A stretch of 64,000 nucleotides of DNA from Escherichia coli (lineage in GTDB: Bacteria; Pseudomonadota; Gammaproteobacteria; Enterobacterales; Enterobacteriaceae): NCBI RefSeq assembly GCF_003334765.1, contig NZ_QOWT01000014.1, one strand, 5' to 3'. A program made the position numbers and the translations under genes. The notes beneath the pieces are model-generated. The model did not search any database. It was not told the origin of the DNA and saw only the letters and a list, made by a program, of their open reading frames with translations. Each line of letters opens with the position of its first letter. Position 1 is the stretch's first letter. Positions 11,529 to 30,145 of this stretch are shown in pieces.

Positions 11529-12680
11529 ATGAAAAACAAATTACCGCCATTTATCGAGATTTACCGCGCTCTGATTGCCACACCTTCAATAAGCGCCACG
11601 GAAGAGGCACTCGATCAAAGCAATGCAGATTTAATCACTCTGCTGGCGGACTGGTTTAAAGATTTGGGCTTCAATGTGGAAGTGCAGCCTGTTCCAGGAA
11701 CTCGCAACAAATTCAATATGCTGGCAAGTATCGGACAGGGGGCTGGCGGCTTGTTGCTGGCGGGGCATACCGATACGGTGCCATTTGATGACGGTCGCTG
11801 GACGCGCGATCCGTTTACACTGACGGAGCATGACGGCAAGCTTTACGGCTTAGGCACCGCCGACATGAAAGGCTTTTTTGCGTTTATCCTTGATGCGCTA
11901 CGCGATGTCGACGTCACGAAACTGAAAAAACCGCTCTACATTCTGGCGACTGCTGATGAAGAAACCAGTATGGCCGGAGCGCGTTATTTTGCCGAAACTA
12001 CCGCCCTGCGCCCGGATTGCGCCATCATTGGCGAACCGACGTCACTACAACCGGTACGCGCACATAAAGGTCATATCTCTAACGCCATCCGTATTCAGGG
12101 CCAGTCGGGGCACTCCAGCGATCCAGCACGCGGAGTTAACGCTATCGAACTAATGCACGACGCCATCGGGCATATTTTGCAATTGCGCGATAACCTGAAA
12201 GAACGTTATCACTACGAAGCGTTTACCGTGCCATACCCTACGCTCAACCTCGGGCATATTCACGGTGGCGACGCTTCTAACCGTATTTGCGCTTGCTGTG
12301 AGTTGCATATGGATATTCGTCCGCTGCCTGGCATGACACTCAATGAACTTAATGGTTTGCTCAACGATGCATTGGCTCCGGTGAGCGAACGCTGGCCGGG
12401 TCGTCTGACGGTCGACGAGCTGCATCCGCCGATCCCTGGCTATGAATGCCCACCGAATCATCAACTGGTTGAAGTGGTTGAGAAATTGCTCGGAGCAAAA
12501 ACCGAAGTGGTGAACTACTGTACCGAAGCGCCGTTTATTCAAACGTTATGCCCGACGCTGGTGTTGGGGCCTGGCTCAATTAATCAGGCTCATCAACCTG
12601 ATGAATATCTGGAAACACGGTTTATCAAGCCCACCCGCGAACTGATAACCCAGGTAATTCACCATTTTTGCTGGCATTAA
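11529..12680 (+). CDS. argE: acetylornithine deacetylase
   Basis: Recognised ArgE; start at [15 protein letters not shown] gives 383 aa. The ORF-track start at 11490 lies inside the ARG boxes. Confidence 0.93.
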
Positions 12681-12907
12681 AACGTAGGCCGGATAAGGCG
12701 CTCGCGCCGCATCCGGCGCTGTTGCCAAACTCCAGTGCCGCAATAATGTCGGATGCGATGCTTGCGCATCTTATCCGACCTACAGTGACTCAAACGATGC
12801 CCAACCGTAGGCCGGATAAGGCGCTCGCGCCGCATCCGGCACTGTTGCCAAACTCCAGTGCCGCAATAATGTCGGATGCGATACTTGCGCATCTTATCCG
12901 ACCTACA
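12681..12907. repeat. tandem duplication (about 123 bp unit, 2 copies) of a BIME made of two inverted REP palindromes
   Basis: Unit GTAGGCCGGATAAGGCGCTCGCGCCGCATCCGGC...GCCGCAATAATGTCGGATGCGATGCTTGCGCATCTTATCCGACCTACA occurs twice (from about 12684 and 12807), with only single-base differences visible. Confidence 0.9.
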
Positions 12908-13154
12908 CCTTTGGTGTTACTTGGGGCGATTTTTTAACATTTCCATAAGTTACGCTTATTTAAAGCGTCGTGAATTTAATGACGTAAATTCCTGCTATTT
13001 ATTCGTTTGCTGAAGCGATTTCGCAGCATTTGACGTCACCGCTTTTACGTGGCTTTATAAAAGACGACGAAAAGCAAAGCCCGAGCATATTCGCGCCAAT
13101 GCGACGTGAAGGATACAGGGCTATCAAACGATAAGATGGGGTGTCTGGGGTAAT

Positions 13155-17935: not shown

Positions 17936-18787
17936 ATGTATCACGACGTCAGCTATCTGCTCTCCCGCCTGATCAACGGCCCGCTGTCCCTGCGCCAGAT
18001 TTACTTTGCCAGCAGTAACGGCCCGGTGCCCGATCTTGCGTATCAGGTCGATTTTCCACGGCTGGAAATTGTGCTGGAAGGTGAGTTTGTTGATACCGGC
18101 GCTGGAGCAACGTTAGTTCCCGGCGATGTGCTGTACGTTCCTGCTGGTGGCTGGAATTTTCCACAATGGCAAGCCCCCGCTACTACCTTTAGCGTGCTGT
18201 TTGGCAAACAGCAACTCGGCTTCAGCGTCGTGCAATGGGATGGCAAACAATATCAAAATCTGGCGAAGCAACACGTCGCCCGACGCGGCCCACGCATAGG
18301 TTCTTTTCTGCTACAAACGCTCAATGAAATGCAAATGCAGCCGCAGGAGCAGCAAACGGCAAGGCTTATCGTCGCCAGCCTGCTTAGCCACTGCCGCGAT
18401 TTGCTTGGCAGCCAAATCCAGACCGCCTCACGCAGCCAGGCACTATTTGAAGCTATTCGCGATTATATCGACGAACGCTATGCCTCCGCGCTTACCCGCG
18501 AATCTGTTGCACAGGCGTTTTATATTTCGCCAAATTACCTCTCGCACCTGTTTCAAAAAACGGGGGCCATTGGTTTTAACGAATACCTGAATCACACGCG
18601 ACTGGAGCACGCTAAGACGTTATTGAAAGGCTATGACCTGAAGGTAAAAGAAGTGGCGCACGCCTGCGGCTTTGTCGACAGCAACTACTTCTGCCGTCTG
18701 TTTCGTAAAAACACCGAACGCTCGCCGTCGGAATATCGCCGGCAGTACCACAGCCAACTGACAGAAAAACCGACTACTCCAGAATAA
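17936..18787 (+). CDS. yijO: AraC-family transcriptional regulator of unknown target
   Basis: 283 aa ORF with a C-terminal AraC-type HTH (YISPNYLSHLFQK ... YFCRLFRK); position matches K-12 yijO. Confidence 0.85.
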   Translation: MYHDVSYLLSRLINGPLSLRQIYFASSNGPVPDLAYQVDFPRLEIVLEGEFVDTGAGATLVPGDVLYVPAGGWNFPQWQAPATTFSVLFGKQQLGFSVVQWDGKQYQNLAKQHVARRGPRIGSFLLQTLNEMQMQPQEQQTARLIVASLLSHCRDLLGSQIQTASRSQALFEAIRDYIDERYASALTRESVAQAFYISPNYLSHLFQKTGAIGFNEYLNHTRLEHAKTLLKGYDLKVKEVAHACGFVDSNYFCRLFRKNTERSPSEYRRQYHSQLTEKPTTPE

Positions 18788-19115
18788 GATGGGTTTGCTG
18801 CGGCGCAGAAAGCACTTTGCGCACCGCGCTCATTACCCGCTGCGGCTCACGCAGGAATGCGTAGATGCTGCATTGCACATAGCGGCAATGTTCAAATCGC
18901 TCGGCACCGGCAAGCTCGATATCCGTAATCAACAGAGCAACATCCGCCCGGCGGATATCCTCATCCGCTAAACGATTCTCCGTTCCCAGCGCGCCCTGAG
19001 TTTCAATGCTGACTCCCCACTTCTCTAACAGGCACAACTTTTCCAGCCGTTCCGCCGCCATATAAGTATGCGCCACGCCGCTTACGCAGGCGGTTACTGC
19101 CACCAGGTATGCCAT
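18774..19115 (-). CDS. frwD: PTS fructose-like EIIB component 2
   Basis: Start at MAYLVAVTACVSGVAHTYMAAE gives 113 aa; fructose-type IIB phospho-Cys motif (ACxSGVAHT). The 3' end overlaps the yijO 3' end by 14 bp. Confidence 0.88.
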   Translation of the reverse strand: MAYLVAVTACVSGVAHTYMAAERLEKLCLLEKWGVSIETQGALGTENRLADEDIRRADVALLITDIELAGAERFEHCRYVQCSIYAFLREPQRVMSAVRKVLSAPQQTHLILE

Positions 19116-19116
19116 T

Positions 19117-19995
19117 TTAACCTCCCACGGTAACCTGAAGTCCGGCCCGTTCTGCCATTTCGCGCATCGTTGCCACATCAGCTGACGACGGCGCAGGCAC
19201 CTCTTTCATCGACCATGTTTTCCCCAGCAGGCGGTATTTCGGTTCGCCGTACTGATGAAACGGTAACAGATGGATCTGCCTGATATTCAGCGGGATCAGT
19301 ACATCCAGCGCCTGCTGCATATTCTCCCGGCTGAGCGTGAAACCAGGGATCAGCGGTAAACGCGGGATCACGTTGACGCCCTCACTCACCAGCAAACGCA
19401 GATTCTCCAGCACGCGTGGCAGGTTCATCTTCACCACATCCCGCGCCTGAGTCGCGTCCATAATTTTTAAATCGAACAACACTTCATCGCACAATTTCGC
19501 CAGCGGTAATAGCTTGCTGGCTGGTGCGTCTCCGGCAGTTTCAATGGCGCATGACACACCCCACAGCCGCAGTCGCTGTAAAAAACGGGTAGCAAACTCC
19601 GCCTGCATTAACACTTCGCCGCCAGAAAGCGTGACGCCGCCGCCGGACGTGCGAAAGAAAATGTCATCTTTCATCACTTCCCGTTCCAGAGCGTCAAGGC
19701 TGATATCGCGACCAATCCGTTCAAACGCCCCGGAGGGGCATTCATCCGCATCACGCAAACATTTCGCACAGTGCAGACATTTCGCCTCTCTGCGTACCGT
19801 CTGGATTTTGCCGGAGATCGACTCCGGATTAGCACACCACGGGCAAAGATGCGGACAGCCTTTAAAAAAGACCACCGTACGAATGCCCTCGCCGTCATTC
19901 AGTGAATAACGCTGAATGTTGAAAATGCGCGCCACATCATCGCGGCGCGTTTCCACAACGTTACAGCTGATGCGCTGTCCGGCGGATGATGTCAT
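19117..19995 (-). CDS. pflC: glycyl-radical enzyme activating enzyme (radical SAM)
   Basis: Start at MTSSAGQ gives 292 aa; radical-SAM CPHLCPWC motif plus a second Cys cluster CLHCAKCLRDADECP. Confidence 0.9.
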   Translation of the reverse strand: MTSSAGQRISCNVVETRRDDVARIFNIQRYSLNDGEGIRTVVFFKGCPHLCPWCANPESISGKIQTVRREAKCLHCAKCLRDADECPSGAFERIGRDISLDALEREVMKDDIFFRTSGGGVTLSGGEVLMQAEFATRFLQRLRLWGVSCAIETAGDAPASKLLPLAKLCDEVLFDLKIMDATQARDVVKMNLPRVLENLRLLVSEGVNVIPRLPLIPGFTLSRENMQQALDVLIPLNIRQIHLLPFHQYGEPKYRLLGKTWSMKEVPAPSSADVATMREMAERAGLQVTVGG

Positions 19996-22258
19996 CCTGG
20001 ATCTCCTTCGACAGTTCGACAAAGAAGGCGCTGTATCCGGCAACGCGCACCACCAGCCCGGCATAATCTTGTGGGCGCTGTTGCGCTTCCCGCAACGTGT
20101 CGGCGTTCACCACGTTAAACTGAATATGTTGTAACTTAAGCTGGGTAAACGCCCGTAAGAAGTCGGCCAGTTTGCGTAATCCTGCTTCACCTTCCAGGGT
20201 CGCCGGAGTGAATTTCACGTTCAGCAACGTACCGTTAGACAGCAGCGTGTTATCGAGCTTACTGACTGACTTCAGTACCGCTGTTGGCCCTTGTGCGTCC
20301 TGGCCCAGCATGGGTGACAAGCCGCCGTCTGCCAGCTGTTCTCCGGCAAAACGACCGTCTGGCGTCGCGCCAACCACCGATCCCAACGGGACGTGAGCAG
20401 AAACGGTATACGATCCCGGCGTGAAGTAGCCGCCGCGCGGGTTCTGGTATTTTTCCACTTCTTTGCAGTAGTGGCGCAACAGTTCGGCGCTGATGTTATC
20501 CACCTCGTCGATATCGTTACCGTATTTCTCGAAGCGGTTAATTAAGCGAGCGCGGACTTTTTCGCCTTCTGGCGTTGCGAAGTTGGCTTTTAATACCGAC
20601 AGCAATTCGTCAAAACTTAAACGCTGTTGCTCAAAAACCATCCCTTTCAACGCATGGAGAGAATCGCTCAGGTTGGCGATACCGATCCCCTGTACGCCGG
20701 AGAAGTTATAACGCGCGCCGCCATCGGTAATATCGCGGCCTTTTTCCAGACAATCGCTGATAAACGATGAGAGCAGCGGTACAGGTGCCCAGTCGCGATG
20801 GCCGATATCACAAATATTGCTGCCCTCAACCATCAGGGTGATGTAGTGGCTGATCTTGGCGCGGATCTGCTCCAGTAAACCTTCATAAGTCAGCGCAGCA
20901 TTGCCTTCATTTTCATGCAGGCAGATTTCCATCACTTTCAGCAGATTAAACATCGCGATGTCATGCAAGCCGTAGGTTCTGCCGGGAATAGATAATTCCA
21001 CACAGCCCACTACGGAATAGTCGCGCGCATCTTCCAGCGAAACGCCACGGTTGAGGAACGCTGGCACCACCACTTCATCGTTAAATATTTGCGGAATACC
21101 GGTGCCGAAGCGAATGGTTTCGGCGGTTTTCATCAGGAACGGCGTGTCGATCAAGGCGTTAGTGCGCACGCCGAGGTTCGGTTGCGGTAATTGCACGCTT
21201 TGATAGGCGTCAAGGCAAAGGAACGAAAGCACGTTCACCGCGCTACGTCCGTTCTCGGTTAACCCGCCGAGCAGTGCGGTATAGCCGGTCGGGAAACCGG
21301 CGAAATAACGCGCGCTACTGGTGGAGCGCAACAGCACGATGTCGTTGCATTTCACCCATAAAGATTCGAGCAGTTCTTTCAGGAACGCCGCATCTTCGCC
21401 CTGGGTTAATGATGTCTGATAGAACGGCAACATATACTGGTCGAAGCGCCCCAACGATAGCGAACTGGCGTTGGATTCGTATTGCAGAATGATGTTCATG
21501 TACCAGAATAACTGGCACGCCTGCCAGAACGTCTGCGGCTTATGTTGCGCGTTATGGCGGGAGATCTCTGCAATAGTCAGCAGCTCTTCGCGACGCTGGG
21601 CATCTGTGCAGTTTGCCGCCATCGTTTCCGCCAGTTCGGCGTAACGCAAAATGTGTTTCTGCGAGGCTTCCAGCAGTAACAACGCGGCCTGATAAAAGTG
21701 ATTCTCCGGCTGTTGCTGACAATGTTGCTGCATCTGTGCCACCAGCTCACCCAGCCCGTGATTCAACAGGCGTGGGTAATCAATAATAATGTGCCCCTGG
21801 CCTTTATCCGTCTGGTTGATGCTGAAAATCTGCGTGTTGGTCGCGGCTTTTACTTCATCTGTCATCTGCCCGTTGATGAAATCTTTCATCGAACGTTTTT
21901 CCCAGTACGGGAACAACTCTTCACGGTAGATACGTTTATCTTCTTCGCTGATAGCAAAGCGGTCCTGCGGACGCGTCGGGAATTGATCCAGCTCTTTCAG
22001 CAGCCAGTAAGGGTCCATTTCCGGCGACATAATCCCGGCGCGCGGTTTTACGGTGCGGTTACCGGCAATCAGTTCTTCATCACGAATCGAAATTTCAACA
22101 TGTTCAAGGATATACGCTGTTGCTTTCGCCCGGCGCAATATCACCGGTTCGCCTTCGGTTTGCCGATGGCTGGCGGTATAAAGCAGCGCCCGCTCCAGCG
22201 AGATTTCACGGGTATTGGCAAACAGTGCAGTTTTGAGGCGAGAGATACGATTCGTCAT
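19961..22258 (-). CDS. pflD: glycyl radical enzyme (annotated formate acetyltransferase 2; true activity unassigned)
   Basis: 765 aa ORF with C-terminal glycyl radical motif RVAGYSA and active-site region VVGCVELSIPG. Confidence 0.9.
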   Translation of the reverse strand: MTNRISRLKTALFANTREISLERALLYTASHRQTEGEPVILRRAKATAYILEHVEISIRDEELIAGNRTVKPRAGIMSPEMDPYWLLKELDQFPTRPQDRFAISEEDKRIYREELFPYWEKRSMKDFINGQMTDEVKAATNTQIFSINQTDKGQGHIIIDYPRLLNHGLGELVAQMQQHCQQQPENHFYQAALLLLEASQKHILRYAELAETMAANCTDAQRREELLTIAEISRHNAQHKPQTFWQACQLFWYMNIILQYESNASSLSLGRFDQYMLPFYQTSLTQGEDAAFLKELLESLWVKCNDIVLLRSTSSARYFAGFPTGYTALLGGLTENGRSAVNVLSFLCLDAYQSVQLPQPNLGVRTNALIDTPFLMKTAETIRFGTGIPQIFNDEVVVPAFLNRGVSLEDARDYSVVGCVELSIPGRTYGLHDIAMFNLLKVMEICLHENEGNAALTYEGLLEQIRAKISHYITLMVEGSNICDIGHRDWAPVPLLSSFISDCLEKGRDITDGGARYNFSGVQGIGIANLSDSLHALKGMVFEQQRLSFDELLSVLKANFATPEGEKVRARLINRFEKYGNDIDEVDNISAELLRHYCKEVEKYQNPRGGYFTPGSYTVSAHVPLGSVVGATPDGRFAGEQLADGGLSPMLGQDAQGPTAVLKSVSKLDNTLLSNGTLLNVKFTPATLEGEAGLRKLADFLRAFTQLKLQHIQFNVVNADTLREAQQRPQDYAGLVVRVAGYSAFFVELSKEIQDDIIRRTAHQL

Positions 22259-22308
22259 GAGGAACTCCTGTGGGAAAGCGAACCCGCCCTTGCGAGCGGG
22301 AGAAGAAC

Positions 22309-22629
22309 TTAAGCGGTTTGCGCCAGGTGAGCTTCAATTTTGCTCATAATGGCGTCAGCACGTTTTACTGCATCGCTGATGTTGACGCGCACGATGGTCT
22401 TGCCAGCAAAACGCTCTTCAAACTTGATGCCGATATCTTTGGTCAGAATCACCATATCAGCGCTCGCCACATCTTCCGCAGTCAGTTCATTTTCCAGACC
22501 AATTGACCCCTGGGTTTCTACTTTCACTTCCCAGCCTTTCGCTTTCGCGGCACTTTCCAGCGCCTCTGCTGCCATATAGGTATGGGCAACACCTGAAGGA
22601 CATGCGGTTACTGCAATAATTTTCGTCAT
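22309..22629 (-). CDS. frwB: PTS fructose-like EIIB component 1
   Basis: 106 aa ORF with MTKIIAVTACPSGVAHTYMAAE (IIB-Fru-type phospho-Cys motif). Confidence 0.9.
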   Translation of the reverse strand: MTKIIAVTACPSGVAHTYMAAEALESAAKAKGWEVKVETQGSIGLENELTAEDVASADMVILTKDIGIKFEERFAGKTIVRVNISDAVKRADAIMSKIEAHLAQTA

Positions 22630-22643
22630 GGCTCGTTCCTCAA

Positions 22644-23723
22644 TTAATTAATTTCAAAATCCAAATCCAGGTCGTCTTCTTTTTCATCAGTCGAAGACCC
22701 ATTTTTACGCGCCAGACTTTTCAGCACGTTCACACAAACAGCCGTCACCACTGCTCCGACAGCCACTGCTGCGATATAACCCAGCTTGCCTTCAACCACC
22801 GGCAGCACAATCAGACCACCCCAGCCTGCATAGCACTGCGCACCGACCAGCGCCGCAGTTACTGCACCACAAACTGAACCGACCATGATGGAAGGAATGA
22901 CACGCAGCGGATCGGCAGCGGCGAAAGGAATCGCCCCTTCAGTAACGCCAACACAGCCCATCACCAGTGCCGCTTTGCCGGTTTCGCGCTCTTCTGCGGA
23001 GAAATTTTTACGACCAATCAGCGTCGCCAGCCCCATCCCCAGCGGCGGGATACAAATACCCACGGCAGCGATGGCCACCACGGTATAAACACCCTGAGCA
23101 ACGCAAATCAGCATGAAGGCATAGGCCACTTTGTTAACCGGACCGCCCATATCGAACGCCAGCATCAGACCCATGATCACCGCCAGCATAACAATGCTGC
23201 CCTGCTGCATCCCCTGAAGCCACTGAGTCAGGCTGTTGGTCAACGCCCCTACAGGCTCGCCCAAGCCCCACATCATGATGCCTGCGGTAATCAGTGTGCC
23301 GACGATAGGAATAATGAAGATAGGCATCACCGAGCGCAGAACTTTATGCACCGGAATTTTCTTCAGGTAATGCACCACGATGCCGCCGATAATCCCGGCG
23401 ATCAGTGCACCAAAGAAGCCCGCACCAAAGCTGTTACCAACCCAGGCACCGATAGCGCACGGAGCCAGCGCAGAACGCTCTGCAATGGAATAACCGATGT
23501 ACGCTGCGAGGAAAGGCACCATCAGCGTCAAGCCCGCAACGCCGATATCAAACAGTTTTTTCAGATTTGGATCGGCTACGGCATCCGGCACTGCGCCTTT
23601 GCCATACAACATGACGGAAACCGCCAGCAAAATACCGCCCGATACCACGAAGGGAATCATGTGTGAAACGCCCGTCATTAAATGCTGACGGGTATTTTTC
23701 AGGATCTGCACCAACTCATTCAT
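22644..23723 (-). CDS. frwC: PTS fructose-like EIIC permease
   Basis: 359 aa polytopic membrane ORF; EIIC-Fru family glycine-rich loops. Confidence 0.9.
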   Translation of the reverse strand: MNELVQILKNTRQHLMTGVSHMIPFVVSGGILLAVSVMLYGKGAVPDAVADPNLKKLFDIGVAGLTLMVPFLAAYIGYSIAERSALAPCAIGAWVGNSFGAGFFGALIAGIIGGIVVHYLKKIPVHKVLRSVMPIFIIPIVGTLITAGIMMWGLGEPVGALTNSLTQWLQGMQQGSIVMLAVIMGLMLAFDMGGPVNKVAYAFMLICVAQGVYTVVAIAAVGICIPPLGMGLATLIGRKNFSAEERETGKAALVMGCVGVTEGAIPFAAADPLRVIPSIMVGSVCGAVTAALVGAQCYAGWGGLIVLPVVEGKLGYIAAVAVGAVVTAVCVNVLKSLARKNGSSTDEKEDDLDLDFEIN

Positions 23724-24031
23724 AAGCTGCTCCCGGGCTTGCGAAAGCCCATGTCCATATTTTTGATGGAGGAAACAATAGGCAATCGCAGGCGGAGCAA
23801 ACAGTGGATAAAAAGGCCATTTACTGGACTTTTGTAATATCAGTACAAAAATGCGATCCGCCTCATAACTTGCGATAAACCGGAAGCATGCCGCAAAACA
23901 GCGTCTTGTGAGACGCGTCGCAAATTGACGGTTACATTACATTTGTCCAGCTTTTGGCAGATTTGTCACATGGCAGGCCGTTGCCGTGCGCTCTTATCCT
24001 GTAAACAGAAAACCGTACCGGGAGAGAGGCA

Positions 24032-26533
24032 ATGGCCCTGATTGTGGAATTTATTTGTGAGCTACCTAACGGCGTACATGCGCGTCCGGCAAGCCACGTT
24101 GAAACGCTGTGTAATACTTTTTCATCACAAATTGAGTGGCATAACCTGCGCACTGACCGCAAGGGCAACGCCAAAAGCGCCCTTGCGCTGATTGGCACCG
24201 ATACGCTGGCGGGCGATAACTGCCAGTTACTGATTTCCGGGGCCGACGAACAGGAAGCGCACCAGCGTTTAAGCCAATGGCTGCGCGATGAATTCCCCCA
24301 CTGCGATGCGCCGCTGGCGGAAGTTAAATCTGACGAACTGGAACCACTGCCGGTTTCACTGACCAATCTGAATCCGCAAATTATCCGCGCCCGCACCGTG
24401 TGCAGCGGTAGTGCAGGCGGCATTCTGACGCCGATCTCTTCTTTAGATCTCAATGCGCTGGGTAATCTTCCCGCAGCCAAAGGCGTTGACGCCGAGCAAT
24501 CCGCACTGGAAAACGGCCTGACGCTGGTACTGAAAAACATTGAGTTTCGTCTGCTGGATAGCGACGGTGCTACCAGCGCGATTCTGGAAGCTCACCGATC
24601 CCTGGCTGGCGATACTTCCCTGCGCGAACATTTACTGGCAGGCGTCAGCGCCGGATTAAGCTGCGCCGAAGCAATTGTTGCCAGCGCGAATCACTTTTGC
24701 GAAGAGTTTTCCCGTTCCAGCAGCAGCTACCTGCAAGAACGTGCCCTGGACGTACGCGACGTCTGCTTCCAGTTACTCCAGCAAATCTACGGTGAGCAAC
24801 GCTTCCCGGCACCGGGCAAACTGACGCAGCCCGCCATTTGTATGGCTGATGAACTGACCCCCAGCCAGTTCCTCGAACTGGATAAAAATCACCTCAAAGG
24901 ATTGTTGCTCAAAAGCGGCGGCACCACCTCACATACGGTGATCCTTGCCCGTTCGTTCAACATTCCAACGCTGGTTGGTGTGGATATTGATGCCCTTACT
25001 CCGTGGCAGCAACAAACGATTTATATCGACGGCAACGCCGGGGCGATTGTGGTTGAGCCAGGGGAAGCCGTAGCTCGTTATTATCAGCAAGAAGCCCGCG
25101 TACAGGACGCCCTGCGTGAGCAACAGCGTGTCTGGCTGACCCAACAAGCCCGTACCGCTGACGGTATCCGCATTGAAATTGCCGCTAACATCGCTCACTC
25201 CGTGGAAGCGCAGGCCGCATTCGGCAATGGTGCGGAAGGCGTTGGTTTGTTCCGCACTGAAATGCTCTATATGGATCGCACCAGCGCACCGGGCGAAAGC
25301 GAGTTGTACAACATTTTTTGTCAGGCGCTGGAATCCGCCAACGGACGCAGCATTATTGTGCGCACTATGGACATTGGCGGCGACAAACCCGTTGATTATC
25401 TGAACATTCCCGCAGAGGCAAACCCGTTCCTCGGTTATCGCGCCGTGCGTATTTATGAAGAGTACGCGTCGTTGTTTACCACGCAGCTACGGTCGATCCT
25501 CCGCGCCTCCGCTCACGGCAGCCTGAAAATCATGATCCCGATGATCTCCTCAATGGAAGAGATCTTATGGGTGAAAGAAAAACTGGCGGAAGCCAAACAG
25601 CAACTACGTAACGAACACATTCCGTTTGATGAGAAAATCCAGCTCGGCATCATGCTGGAAGTGCCGTCGGTGATGTTCATCATCGATCAATGCTGCGAAG
25701 AGATTGATTTCTTTAGTATTGGTAGTAATGACCTGACGCAGTATCTGCTGGCGGTGGATCGCGATAACGCTAAGGTTACTCGTCACTACAACAGCCTGAA
25801 TCCGGCATTCTTGCGGGCGCTCGATTACGCCGTGCAAGCGGTGCATCGCCAGGGCAAATGGATTGGTCTGTGCGGTGAGCTGGGAGCGAAAGGTTCCGTG
25901 CTGCCGTTGCTGGTCGGCTTAGGGCTGGATGAACTCAGCATGAGCGCACCATCAATTCCGGCGGCGAAAGCTCGGATGGCGCAACTTGATAGCCGTGAGT
26001 GCCGCAAGTTGCTCAACCAGGCAATGGCCTGCCGTACTTCGCTGGAAGTGGAACACCTGCTGGCGCAATTCCGCATGACCCAACAAGACGCACCGCTGGT
26101 CACCGCCGAGTGCATCACACTGGAAAGCGACTGGCGCAGCAAAGAAGAAGTGCTCAAAGGCATGACCGATAACCTGCTGCTGGCGGGCCGCTGCCGCTAT
26201 CCGCGTAAACTGGAAGCCGACTTGTGGGCGCGCGAGGCCGTTTTCTCTACCGGTCTGGGCTTTAGTTTTGCCATTCCACACAGCAAATCAGAACACATTG
26301 AGCAATCCACCATCAGCGTGGCGCGTCTGCAAGCGCCGGTGCGCTGGGGCGATGATGAAGCGCAATTCATCATTATGTTAACCCTGAACAAACACGCTGC
26401 GGGCGATCAGCATATGCGCATTTTCTCGCGCCTCGCTCGCCGCATCATGCACGAAGAATTCCGTAACGCGCTGGTTAACGCCGCCTCTGCCGACGCTATC
26501 GCCAGCCTGCTGCAACATGAACTGGAACTGTAA
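24032..26533 (+). CDS. ptsA: multiphosphoryl transfer protein: HPr-like, Enzyme I-like and EIIA(Fru)-like domains
   Basis: 833 aa ORF: N-terminal HPr-like His motif (NGVHARPA), central PEP-utilising His motif ([13 protein letters not shown]) and EI TIM-barrel motifs, C-terminal EIIA motif (AIPHSKSEH). Confidence 0.9.
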
Positions 26534-26544
26534 AAGGAAACATC

Positions 26545-27207
26545 ATGGAACTGTATCTGGACACCGCTAACGTCGCAGAAGTCGAACGTCTGGCACGCAT
26601 ATTCCCCATTGCCGGGGTGACAACTAACCCGAGCATTATCGCTGCCAGCAAGGAGTCCATATGGGAAGTGCTGCCGCGTCTGCAAAAAGCGATTGGTGAT
26701 GAGGGCATTCTGTTTGCTCAGACCATGAGCCGCGACGCGCAGGGGATGGTGGAAGAAGCGAAGCGCCTGCGCGACGCTATTCCGGGTATTGTGGTGAAAA
26801 TCCCGGTGACTTCCGAAGGTCTGGCAGCAATTAAAATACTGAAAAAAGAGGGTATTACTACACTTGGCACTGCTGTATATAGCGCCGCACAAGGGTTATT
26901 AGCCGCACTGGCAGGGGCAAAATACGTTGCTCCGTATGTTAACCGCGTAGATGCCCAGGGCGGAGACGGCATTCGTACGGTTCAGGAGCTGCAAACGCTG
27001 TTAGAAATGCACGCGCCAGAAAGCATGGTGCTGGCAGCCAGCTTTAAAACGCCGCGTCAGGCGCTGGACTGTTTACTGGCAGGATGTGAATCCATCACCC
27101 TGCCCTTAGATGTAGCGCAACAAATGCTCAACACCCCTGCGGTAGAGTCAGCTATAGAGAAGTTCGAACACGACTGGAATGCCGCATTTGGCACTACTCA
27201 TCTCTAA
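26545..27207 (+). CDS. fsaB: fructose-6-phosphate aldolase 2 (transaldolase-like)
   Basis: 220 aa ORF recognised as FsaB/TalC ([32 protein letters not shown]...). Confidence 0.93.
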
Positions 27208-27217
27208 AGGAGCAATT

Positions 27218-28321
27218 ATGGACCGCATTATTCAATCACCGGGTAAATACATCCAGGGCGCTGATGTGATTAATCGTCTGGGCGAATACCTGAAGCCGCT
27301 GGCAGAACGCTGGTTAGTGGTGGGTGACAAATTTGTTTTAGGTTTTGCTCAATCCACTGTCGAGAAAAGCTTTAAAGATGCTGGACTGGTAGTAGAAATT
27401 GCGCCGTTTGGCGGTGAATGTTCGCAAAATGAGATCGACCGTCTGCGTGGCATCGCGGAGACTGCGCAGTGTGGCGCAATTCTCGGTATCGGTGGCGGAA
27501 AAACCCTCGATACTGCCAAAGCACTGGCACATTTCATGGGTGTTCCGGTAGCGATCGCACCGACTATCGCCTCTACCGATGCACCGTGCAGCGCATTGTC
27601 TGTTATCTACACCGATGAGGGTGAGTTTGACCGCTATCTGCTGTTGCCAAATAACCCGAATATGGTCATTGTCGACACCAAAATCGTCGCTGGCGCACCT
27701 GCACGTCTGTTAGCGGCGGGTATCGGCGATGCGCTGGCAACCTGGTTTGAAGCGCGTGCCTGCTCTCGTAGCGGCGCGACCACCATGGCGGGCGGCAAGT
27801 GCACCCAGGCTGCGCTGGCACTGGCTGAACTGTGCTACAACACCCTGCTGGAAGAAGGCGAAAAAGCGATGCTTGCTGCCGAACAGCATGTAGTGACTCC
27901 GGCGCTGGAGCGCGTGATTGAAGCGAACACCTATTTGAGCGGTGTTGGTTTTGAAAGTGGTGGTCTGGCTGCGGCGCACGCAGTGCATAACGGCCTGACC
28001 GCTATCCCGGACGCGCATCACTATTATCACGGTGAAAAAGTGGCATTCGGTACGCTGACGCAGCTGGTTCTGGAAAATGCGCCGGTGGAGGAAATCGAAA
28101 CCGTAGCTGCCCTTAGCCATGCGGTAGGTTTGCCAATAACTCTCGCTCAACTGGATATTAAAGAAGATGTCCCGGCGAAAATGCGAATTGTGGCAGAAGC
28201 GGCATGTGCAGAAGGTGAAACCATTCACAACATGCCTGGCGGCGCGACGCCAGATCAGGTTTACGCCGCTCTGCTGGTAGCCGACCAGTACGGTCAGCGT
28301 TTCCTGCAAGAGTGGGAATAA
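27218..28321 (+). CDS. gldA: glycerol dehydrogenase
   Basis: Start at [17 protein letters not shown] gives 367 aa; iron-containing alcohol dehydrogenase family. Confidence 0.93.
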
Positions 28322-28366
28322 CCTACTCCAAACTCCCGGCTTGTCCGGGAGTTTGAACGCAAAATT

Positions 28367-28466
28367 GCCTGATGCGCTACGCTTATCAGGCCTACGCAAT
28401 CTCTGCAATATATTGAATTTGCGTGCTTTTGTAGGCCGGATAAGGCGTTCACTCCGCATCCGGCAC
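28367..28466. repeat. RIP-type BIME: two inverted REP palindromes flanking a central AT-rich (IHF-site-like) core
   Basis: GCCTGATGCGCTACGCTTATCAGGCCTAC - GCAATCTCTGCAATATATTGAATTTGCGTGC - TTTTGTAGGCCGGATAAGGCGTTCACTCCGCATCCGGCA. Confidence 0.85.
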
Positions 28467-28595
28467 TCTGTGCCAGTAATCTGAAACTCCCACGTTGTTC
28501 AGGAATTTTTTATCCGCTTCTGGACATTTTCTCTACAGAACAATCGTTAGCCCGGAAGGTCGAATCTGTGACTCTTATTTTCACGGACGAACCAG

Positions 28596-29213
28596 ATGAA
28601 AGCTTCACTGGCGCTGCTCAGCCTGCTAACGGCATTTACCAGCCACTCCTTAAAATCTCCCGCCGTTCCACCAACCGTGGTACAAATCCAGGCCAATACC
28701 AACCTTGCCATCGCAGACGGTGCCAGACAGCAAATTGGCAGCACGCTATTTTACGATCCGGCGTATGTGCAGCTTACTTATCCTGGCGGTGATGTTCCGC
28801 AAGAACGCGGTGTATGTTCCGATGTGGTGATCCGCGCATTGCGCAGCCAGAAGGTCGATTTGCAGAAACTGGTTCACGAAGATATGGCGAAGAATTTTGC
28901 TGAGTACCCGCAAAAATGGAAGTTAAAGCGCCCGGACAGCAACATCGATCACCGTCGGGTGCCTAATCTGGAAACCTGGTTTAGCCGCCATGATAAAACA
29001 CGCCCCACCAGCAAGAACCCCAGTGACTATCAAGCGGGCGATATTGTCTCCTGGCGACTGGATAACGGGCTGGCACATATTGGGGTGGTTTCAGATGGCT
29101 TCGCCCGCGACGGTACGCCGCTGGTGATACATAACATTGGCGCAGGCGCGCAGGAAGAAGATGTGCTGTTTAACTGGCGGATGGTGGGGCATTATCGTTA
29201 TTTTGTTAAATAA
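28596..29213 (+). CDS. yijF: secreted protein of unknown function (DUF1287 family)
   Basis: 205 aa ORF with an N-terminal signal peptide (MKASLALLSLLTAFTSHS); position matches K-12 yijF. Confidence 0.85.
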   Translation: MKASLALLSLLTAFTSHSLKSPAVPPTVVQIQANTNLAIADGARQQIGSTLFYDPAYVQLTYPGGDVPQERGVCSDVVIRALRSQKVDLQKLVHEDMAKNFAEYPQKWKLKRPDSNIDHRRVPNLETWFSRHDKTRPTSKNPSDYQAGDIVSWRLDNGLAHIGVVSDGFARDGTPLVIHNIGAGAQEEDVLFNWRMVGHYRYFVK

Positions 29214-29239
29214 GAGATCGCCCCACATGAAGAAAAAAT

Positions 29240-30145
29240 TCAGATCCTTTTTACACTGACGGCTTCTTTTTTCTTACGGCTCACCAGCGCCAGTGCCAGC
29301 ACAATCAGCACAATACCGCTACCTTCAACGGCCCCCGGATTCTCGCCGAGCAGCCACCAGGAAAAGAGTACGCCGCAAACGGGAACGGCCAGTGTGCTTA
29401 AGCTGGCAATACTGGCAGGCAAGTTTTTCAATACAAACAACCATAAGCTCCACGCCAGTGCCGTCGCCAGAATCGCACTGTAGGCCAGCGCCCAGAACAC
29501 GGTGGGCTGCCAGTCAATTTCACGTTGCGGCACCAGTAAAGCGACCACACTCATCACCAGCGCCGCATACAGCATCTGCCAGGATGTTAACGACAATAAA
29601 TCCACGCGCGGATGACGGGCATACAGACGTTTAGCAACAATCGCGCTCGCCCCCCAACTGACGCCGGAGAGGATTGCCAGCATGGCACTTTTCATCGAAG
29701 AGAAATCGAGTTGCCACGGCTGCAACACCAAAAATAAGCCGAAAGCGGCAATCAGAATCGCGAAATATTGCCCACGTCGCAGGCGTTCACCGAGAAACAA
29801 CGCGGCGAAAATCACCACCCAGAACGGCATGGTATAGCTCAGGATCGCCACCTTCCCCGCACCTCCGCTGACCAACGCCCACTGCGCCAGACCAACCATC
29901 CCGCAGGTTTGTAACAGGGCAATGGCTAAGGTGTATTTAAACGGTGTCGGGCGCATTCCGCGACCACGTAATAAAAGGACGATGAATAAAACGAGAGCGC
30001 CGAAAATGCAGCGTAAGGCGGTAAAGTCGAAGGCACCGATGTAACTGGTGACTTGCTTCATGAAAATCCAGCTATAACTCCAGATAAGTGTGAGCACAAC
30101 CAGGCCACTGATTGCCAGTGGGTTGCTCTTTCCTGCGGCAGACAT
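29240..30145 (-). CDS. yijE: EamA/DMT-family inner-membrane transporter
   Basis: Start at [17 protein letters not shown] gives 301 aa; ten-TM duplicated EamA architecture. Confidence 0.85.

Follow-up and report, generated by a model that had tools for sequence, protein, structure and literature searches.

What does a bacterium take up and break down with a fructose-type phosphotransferase system (PTS) that is wrapped around a glycyl radical enzyme and its activase, and that lies next to a fructose-6-phosphate aldolase and a glycerol dehydrogenase? The question is raised by eight genes (frwD, pflC, pflD, frwB, frwC, ptsA, fsaB and gldA) at 18774-28321 in a window of 64,000 nucleotides from Escherichia coli (assembly GCF_003334765.1, contig NZ_QOWT01000014.1), the whole stretch of DNA analysed here. 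A previous reading of this stretch, made without database searches (the sequence-only reading), stated that the substrate was not firmly established. This is outdated, as the substrate, the product, structures (PDB 8YJO) and a growth phenotype have all been published. The region is the 1,5-anhydromannitol radical glycolysis locus of E. coli; its function was already published in 2024 and is not new. The logic proposed in the sequence-only reading, in which a compound taken up and phosphorylated anaerobically by the PTS is acted on by a radical enzyme and then enters an aldol cleavage and a redox reaction, agrees with the published pathway (PMC12441222), and only its description as an uncharacterised pathway has been overtaken.

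In the published scheme, a PTS phosphorylates 1,5-anhydroglucitol and 1,5-anhydromannitol (AM) to their 6-phosphates (PMC12441222 section 5.1, summarising Ma et al. 2024, JACS 146:26187). PflD cleaves AM-6-phosphate (AM-6-P), while YbiW cleaves 1,5-anhydroglucitol-6-phosphate (PMC12441222, citing Ma et al. 2024). Both enzymes generate the same product, 1-deoxyfructose-6-phosphate, through a strictly anaerobic glycyl-radical reaction, and this product is metabolised further (PMC12441222). It is very probable that the region analysed here represents the 1,5-anhydro-D-mannitol branch of this radical-mediated ‘anhydro-sugar glycolysis’ of Ma et al. 2024; uptake by the Frw system and control by YijO and CRP are proposed parts of this scheme. 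The pathway is remarkable in its chemistry, a glycyl radical enzyme opening the ring of a non-reducing anhydro-sugar and ordinary aldolase chemistry completing the breakdown, and it allows gut bacteria to use 1,5-anhydro-hexitols. These compounds are abundant in food and blood and have clinical relevance in diabetes monitoring and in the neutropenia of glycogen storage disease type Ib.

The central enzyme of the locus is PflD, a glycyl radical enzyme of 765 amino acids encoded at 19961..22258 on the minus strand. In a profile search, all eight products pass the curated NCBIfam threshold for the respective E. coli equivalog, with PflD reaching 1724.8 against NF007437 (cut-off 1109). All of its 765 residues are identical to those of PDB entry 8YJO, ‘Probable dehydratase PflD’; structures are also available for relatives, namely YbiW (8YJN and 8ID7) and other homologues (8ID0 and 8ID1). 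Membership of the glycyl radical enzyme superfamily is confirmed by the TIGR01774 score (1356, cut-off 678), by Gly741 in the RVAGYS loop and by Cys419, which together with Glu421 forms the CxE motif GCVE. The Pfam domains PF02901 (PFL-like) and PF01228 (Gly_radical) are precomputed on close PflD homologues. In a phmmer alignment with the glycerol dehydratase 1R8W (654 bits), Cys419 and Glu421 correspond to C433 and E435 of that enzyme. The score with the pyruvate formate-lyase (PFL) equivalog TIGR01255 is only 121.9, with a cut-off of 994.2, and in place of an adjacent Cys–Cys pair there is only one Cys, with Val and Glu after it. Because of the CxE site aligned to 1R8W and the low TIGR01255 score, PflD is, judged by its sequence, an eliminase-type glycyl radical enzyme and not a formate C-acetyltransferase.

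The activase gene pflC (19117..19995, minus strand) overlaps the 3´ end of pflD by 35 nt. Its product, a radical S-adenosylmethionine (radical-SAM) protein, scores 627 with NF007483 (cut-off 326) and 262 with TIGR02494 (cut-off 174), and carries the radical-SAM motif CX3CX2C at C47/C51/C54. Its auxiliary cysteines are shortened to one four-Cys motif (C73/C76/C79/C86), and PflC may bind fewer auxiliary Fe–S clusters. About 27 residues of the ferredoxin-like insert present in YbiY and other activases of glycyl radical enzymes are missing from PflC.

Under anoxia, PflC would set the radical on Gly741 of PflD. The thiyl radical of Cys419 would then take H-2 of AM-6-P while Glu421 deprotonates the 2-OH, with elimination of the C1–O5 bond; the hydrogen would be handed back to C1, and the ring would open to 1-deoxy-D-fructose-6-phosphate. 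This course is deduced by analogy from the dehydratase-type CxE site, and abstraction of H-2 would explain why a single product arises from both C2 epimers.

The substrate for this reaction would be delivered by the Frw system. Two fructose-type PTS enzyme IIB (EIIB) proteins are encoded on the minus strand: FrwB, with 106 amino acids (22309..22629; NF007783 210, cut-off 135; Cys10 in VTACPSGVAHTYMAAE), and FrwD, with 113 amino acids (18774..19115; NF007747 224, cut-off 153; Cys10 in VTACVSGVAHTYMAAE). Both keep the phospho-cysteine Cys10 in the motif VTAC(P/V)SGVAHTYMAAE. The fructose-type enzyme IIC (EIIC) permease FrwC, of 359 amino acids, is encoded at 22644..23723 on the same strand (NF007787 720, cut-off 426). 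The divergent gene ptsA, also called frwA (24032..26533, plus strand), encodes a multiphosphoryl transfer protein of 833 amino acids, assigned by profile matches and motifs, which combines HPr, enzyme I (EI) and a fructose-type enzyme IIA (EIIA(Fru)). The HPr family model matches residues 10-83, TIGR01417 residues 181-677 and TIGR00848 residues 690-814, with the phosphorylatable histidines H16 (GVHARP), H301 (TTSHTV) and H750 (AIPHSK). PGAP labels this gene ‘ptsP’, but its correct identity is ptsA (frwA) and not the ptsP of the nitrogen PTS. The components of a full fructose-family phosphorelay are all matched (TIGR01417, TIGR01003, TIGR00848, TIGR00829 and TIGR01427). The sequence-only reading was thus right in proposing a complete fructose-family PTS split over two divergent units, since every domain and phosphorylatable residue is present, and the complete Frw/PtsA phosphorelay looks functional. 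Phosphoenolpyruvate would phosphorylate EI of PtsA at H301, from which the phosphoryl group would pass to HPr (H16), EIIA (H750) and Cys10 of FrwB and/or FrwD, and FrwC would import AM as AM-6-P.

The chemistry of the substrate fits this assignment. Fructose-type PTS phosphorylate fructose at C1. AM is fructopyranose without the anomeric OH, mannitol being C2-symmetric, and its C6 corresponds to C1 of fructose; therefore, a fructose-type PTS would yield AM-6-P.

The conservation of gene order was analysed in a sample of one genome per species scanned with a PflD alignment, which yielded 80 loci whose identity to PflD ranges from 98% to 39%. Nine E. coli proteins were run by tblastn against these loci, and only loci flanked by 5 kb or more on both sides were counted. 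A PflD clade was defined by a homologue with at least 55% identity (43 loci) and compared with more distant glycyl radical enzymes below 55% (11 loci). In the PflD clade, EIIC(Fru) was found in 35 loci, a fructose-6-phosphate aldolase (FSA) in 32 and both in 28, together with the PtsA fusion in 22, a YijO homologue in 23 and gldA in 13. Among the distant enzymes, two loci have an FSA, while EIIC(Fru), the combination of both, PtsA, YijO and gldA are absent from all 11. This supports that enzymes of the PflD clade, but not the distant ones, travel with a fructose-type PTS and an FSA aldolase. The linked loci belong to Enterobacterales, Orbaceae, Pasteurellaceae, Vibrionaceae, Clostridium, Enterococcus, Streptococcus, Sporolactobacillus and Leptotrichia. 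A library of representatives at 50% identity was left out of the synteny analysis, the PflD clade being a single cluster in it and the members P0122 and P0124 lying on a short contig or in unrelated glycyl radical enzyme contexts. From the linkage in 35 of the 43 PflD-clade loci and the correspondence between C6 of AM and C1 of fructose, we infer that Frw/PtsA is the PTS for AM.

The most compact arrangement was observed in Streptococcus castoreus (locus L037, 3927-14919). Here, a YbiW-like glycyl radical enzyme (52% to YbiW), a DeoR-type regulator, EIIA(Fru), EIIB, EIIC, a PflD-like glycyl radical enzyme, an activase, FSA and GldA are co-linear, so that the functions of both E. coli loci are found together in one cluster, and one activase may serve two glycyl radical enzymes. 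YbiW-like and PflD-like enzymes are also neighbours in two further loci (L046 and L050), and in another (L070) the neighbour of a YbiW-like enzyme is a more remote homologue with 41% identity to PflD. In a record labelled Edwardsiella tarda ATCC 23685, the order fsa-ptsA / frwCB-pflDC-frwD / yijO is found between uvrC-pgsA and ato, with no gldA. Because the block is flanked there by unrelated genes, this arrangement suggests that the eight-gene block including yijO is inherited as a unit.

The product of PflD would be processed by the two genes that follow ptsA. FsaB, fructose-6-phosphate aldolase 2 (26545..27207, plus strand), scores 354.6 with TIGR00875 (cut-off 245.95) and has Lys85 in the motif VVKIPV. 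This lysine is the catalytic Schiff-base residue known from FSA structures. GldA (27218..28321, plus strand) is an NAD-dependent glycerol/1,2-propanediol dehydrogenase (NF047954 752.6, cut-off 700). In the work of Ma et al. 2024, FsaA or FsaB reportedly splits 1-deoxyfructose-6-phosphate into glyceraldehyde-3-phosphate (G3P) and hydroxyacetone, and GldA is said to reduce hydroxyacetone to 1,2-propanediol. Both steps are consistent with what is known of the enzymes, as FSA takes hydroxyacetone as a donor and the profile matched by GldA is named bifunctional 1,2-propanediol/glycerol dehydrogenase. FsaB would carry out the cleavage through Lys85, and GldA with NADH would turn hydroxyacetone into 1,2-propanediol, offsetting the NADH that arises from G3P.

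The sequence-only reading had called this PTS cryptic, which is too strong a term for a locus with a CRP site at ptsA/frwC in chromatin immunoprecipitation sequencing (ChIP-seq; PMC4287617) and with reported anaerobic induction of fsaB and gldA (PMC6643234). The divergent intergenic region between frwC and ptsA lies exactly where that reading placed it (23724-24031) and is 308 bp long. Footprinting of this spacer in an alignment of 16 Enterobacterales sequences revealed sharply conserved blocks, among them two composite sites. Site C, ACAAAAGTCCAG-N9-TTTTTATCCAC, faces frwC (23835->23804, minus strand). Its inverted counterpart, site F, ACATTTGTCCAG-N9-ATTTGTCACA, faces ptsA (23939..23970, plus strand). 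The hexamer GTCCAG lies at 23824-23829 in site C and at 23945-23950 in site F. The spacing of about 21 bp between half-sites is that of AraC-family dimers, and a -10-like hexamer is found exactly 24 nt past each composite site (TATCCT, 23995-24000, and, on the minus strand, TATTGT, 23780->23775), marking the presumed promoters. The pattern TCCAG-N9/10-WTTTRTC occurs just twice in the window, at sites C and F, with an expectation of 0. In the fetched loci, nearly all of its occurrences fall in ptsA-frwC spacers from yijO-bearing genomes, of which Vibrio variabilis is one. Sites C and F are predicted to be binding sites of an AraC-type activator, with YijO as the candidate.

Two conserved CRP-like sites lie between the composite sites. 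CRP site 1, TGCGATCCGCCTCATA (23852..23867), was found by a consensus scan and is conserved in the alignment; a CRP ChIP-seq table of enterotoxigenic E. coli H10407 gives this very 16-mer for ptsA/frwC (PMC4287617). CRP-like site 2, TGTGAGACGCGTCGCA (23907..23922), has one mismatch to the consensus, and its core TGTGA-N6-TC.CA is conserved across genera in the alignment. Experimental support in the literature was found for site 1 and not for site 2. Measured from the putative transcription starts, near 23768 (minus strand) and 24007 (plus strand), their centres would lie about 91.5 and 92.5 bp upstream. A third CRP-like match (23955-23970) overlaps half-site 2 of composite site F and was discounted. 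No match to an FNR box with up to two mismatches was detected in 23724-24031.

The candidate activator is encoded at the other end of the locus. yijO (17936..18787, plus strand, by the RefSeq annotation), an AraC-family regulator gene, is convergent with frwD, with a tail-to-tail overlap of 14 nt (18774-18787). Pfam matches of YijO (HTH_18/HTH_AraC) are confined to residues 179-270, and its N-terminal domain has no Pfam match. In the literature, YijO counts among the transcription factors whose function is unknown, and its N-terminal domain is called divergent (PMC9308461); frwD-yijO has been listed as a convergent excludon (PMC12288877). Its homologues in the PflD clade include those of all 22 loci carrying ptsA. 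In most gammaproteobacterial loci frwD lies next to yijO, including three in which the pair has moved away from pflC, a hint that the regulator and the second EIIB are functionally connected. The pair stays together in Zophobihabitans, Necropsobacter and Gilliamella, on the opposite side of the cluster, and also in Vibrio variabilis, in which it has shifted to a place downstream of pflC (L021, L022, L024 and L025); in Photobacterium (L026) the two genes are not adjacent. The chances are about even that YijO is an activator responsive to AM or AM-6-P which binds to sites C and F and switches on both divergent operons together with cAMP-CRP at both CRP sites. In such a circuit, cAMP-CRP and the adjacent YijO would activate both operons from a symmetric, araBAD-like promoter region and, more speculatively, FrwD might report the PTS flux to YijO. 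No description of control of the locus by YijO, the composite sites and CRP was found in the literature searched.

The assignment of the locus to AM has to be weighed against the names under which its genes are stored. RefSeq/PGAP and the title of NF007437 call PflD a ‘formate C-acetyltransferase’, the domain names PFL-like and Gly_radical point the same way, and the best 120 homologues listed, all from Enterobacteriaceae and with at least 89% identity, all bear PFL-type names. These names would make PflD a third pyruvate/2-ketobutyrate formate-lyase and the cluster a route for fermenting a fructose-like sugar to formate and acetyl-CoA. The active-site motif and the family score contradict this reading, and the name chosen by the PDB depositors and the published substrate, AM-6-P (PMC12441222), equally speak against it, so that it was rejected as almost certainly wrong; the public annotation of both PflD and PtsA is behind the literature. 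The same locus could also be a dihydroxyacetone (DHA) and glycerol module, in which FsaB condenses DHA with G3P, GldA interconverts glycerol and DHA, Frw is a cryptic anaerobic fructose PTS and pflDC are passengers. The genes ptsA-fsaB-gldA have been taken as one operon of unclear role linked to DHA, deletion of fsaB or gldA slows growth on DHA, and PtsA has been assigned to a putative PTS for the anaerobic catabolism of fructose (PMC6643234). However, DHA does not induce fsaB or gldA, and its effects are modest (PMC6643234). Moreover, glycyl radical enzyme, fructose-type PTS and FSA stay linked across phyla, often without gldA, and all the functions lie co-linear on one strand in S. castoreus. 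A module for DHA is highly unlikely as the purpose of the locus; the detoxification of DHA is more plausibly a secondary activity of FsaB and GldA.

A more serious alternative concerns the importer: AM could enter through a general hexose PTS (ManXYZ or PtsG), leaving Frw/PtsA for another substrate or for regulation. The review names just ‘a phosphotransferase system’ as the AM phosphorylator (PMC12441222), the paralogous ybiW locus and some PflD loci have no PTS of their own, and two EIIB genes for one EIIC are unusual. Against this stand the fructose-type IIB/IIC genes beside the glycyl radical enzyme in 35 of the 43 loci, from Gammaproteobacteria to Firmicutes and Leptotrichia, and the likeness of AM to fructopyranose, which would suit a permease of the fructose family. 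Entry by a general hexose PTS is unlikely. Several other points weigh against the AM pathway as drawn here. In about one fifth of the PflD-clade loci no PTS lies next to the enzyme gene (L031 of Pseudocitrobacter and L044 of Kluyvera are examples), therefore another transporter can serve, and gldA is adjacent in just 13 of the 43. The promoter region has no FNR-like site that would account for the reported anaerobic induction. The roles proposed for FsaB and GldA, and the choice between Frw and another PTS as the AM importer, go beyond what the review summarises. Finally, FsaB and GldA also contribute to DHA metabolism (PMC6643234), and because of this role fsaB and gldA are not dedicated to the AM pathway.

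The AM locus itself is intact and widely conserved. Gene positions were taken from the open reading frame (ORF) list and from the RefSeq annotation of E. coli NZ_AP022105.1, which is 99.99% identical across the region. By both sources the eight genes are complete and lie at the coordinates given by the sequence-only reading, whose gene order was also borne out, with pflDC embedded in the minus-strand unit and fsaB and gldA following ptsA. The translations contain no internal stops; frwD, pflC and gldA have longer alternative starts in the mechanical ORF list. Many E. coli chromosomes match a 12-kb query (18000-30000) without a single difference (100% identity), and 5393 of 5426 complete genomes carry 80% or more of it.

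Several features of the surrounding sequence can also be described. After gldA, a hairpin (AAACTCCCGG-CTTGT-CCGGGAGTTT; 28330..28354, plus strand), read from the sequence and followed by repetitive extragenic palindromic (REP) elements, likely represents the operon end. The repeats downstream of gldA, of the type of REP and bacterial interspersed mosaic elements (28363-28465), have an 88%-similar copy at 38201-38302, in the metJ-yiiX region by its position in the reference annotation; both are ordinary E. coli intergenic repeats. In the frwB-pflD spacer, a terminator scan flagged a hairpin with a GC-rich stem of 7 bp and a GCAA loop, behind which comes a weak U tract (22283-22300, minus strand). 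Its reading as an attenuator was dropped, its folding energy being ordinary (z = -0.79); it could be an mRNA-stability element, a partial-termination element or nothing. In the argE-ppc intergenic region (~12560-12910), the BLAST alignment with NZ_AP022105.1 is offset by one 123-bp unit, which indicates a copy-number difference in a tandem or REP-like repeat of about 123 bp between the strains. Positions 1-1493 of the window do not align with this reference strain, which has at the corresponding place a CTX-M-14 beta-lactamase gene and an IS5-family fragment inside a truncated TonB-dependent receptor gene, presumably btuB, downstream of a cobalamin riboswitch. In the window this receptor gene is presumably uninterrupted.

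How the locus relates to known systems can be considered at several levels. As a locus, it is the same as frwCB-pflDC-frwD / ptsA-fsaB-gldA of E. coli K-12 (b3945-b3953). Order, orientation and coordinates agree with the RefSeq annotation, and no difference of substance was found, although the window comes from a non-K-12 strain.

As an enzyme, PflD shares its fold, a single Cys in a CxE motif, a Glu as general base, the C-terminal RVxG glycyl radical loop and a radical-SAM activase of the PflC/PflE type with the B12-independent glycerol dehydratase and other 1,2-eliminases of the superfamily (1R8W, 5I2A, CutC and HypD). In PflD, however, the group expelled would be the ether oxygen of the ring, where the other enzymes release water, an amine or sulfite; the reaction thus opens a sugar ring, in contrast with the diol dehydration of glycerol dehydratase. 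The pyruvate formate-lyases PflB and TdcE have the superfamily and the glycyl radical loop in common with PflD, which lacks their Cys–Cys dyad and would perform C–O elimination instead of C–C cleavage.

As a pathway, its closest relative is the ybiW-ybiY/fsaA locus of E. coli, the 1,5-anhydroglucitol-6-phosphate branch, whose substrate is the C2 epimer of that of the pflD branch. Both loci contain a glycyl radical enzyme, its activase and a divergent FSA aldolase, and both lead to 1-deoxyfructose-6-phosphate, with identities of 37% between PflD and YbiW, 36% between PflC and YbiY and 70% between FsaB and FsaA. The ybiW locus has no PTS, gldA or AraC-type regulator, and carries the sugar phosphatase gene ybiV instead.

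As a promoter region, the frwC-ptsA spacer resembles those of araBAD and rhaBAD. In promoters of this type, the AraC-family activator binds between about -35 and -75 and CRP near -92. Tandem half-sites about 21 bp apart likewise abut each putative promoter here, and the geometry of the CRP centres is alike. The difference lies in the presence of two back-to-back units serving divergent operons, for which both the activator and the transcription starts are predicted.

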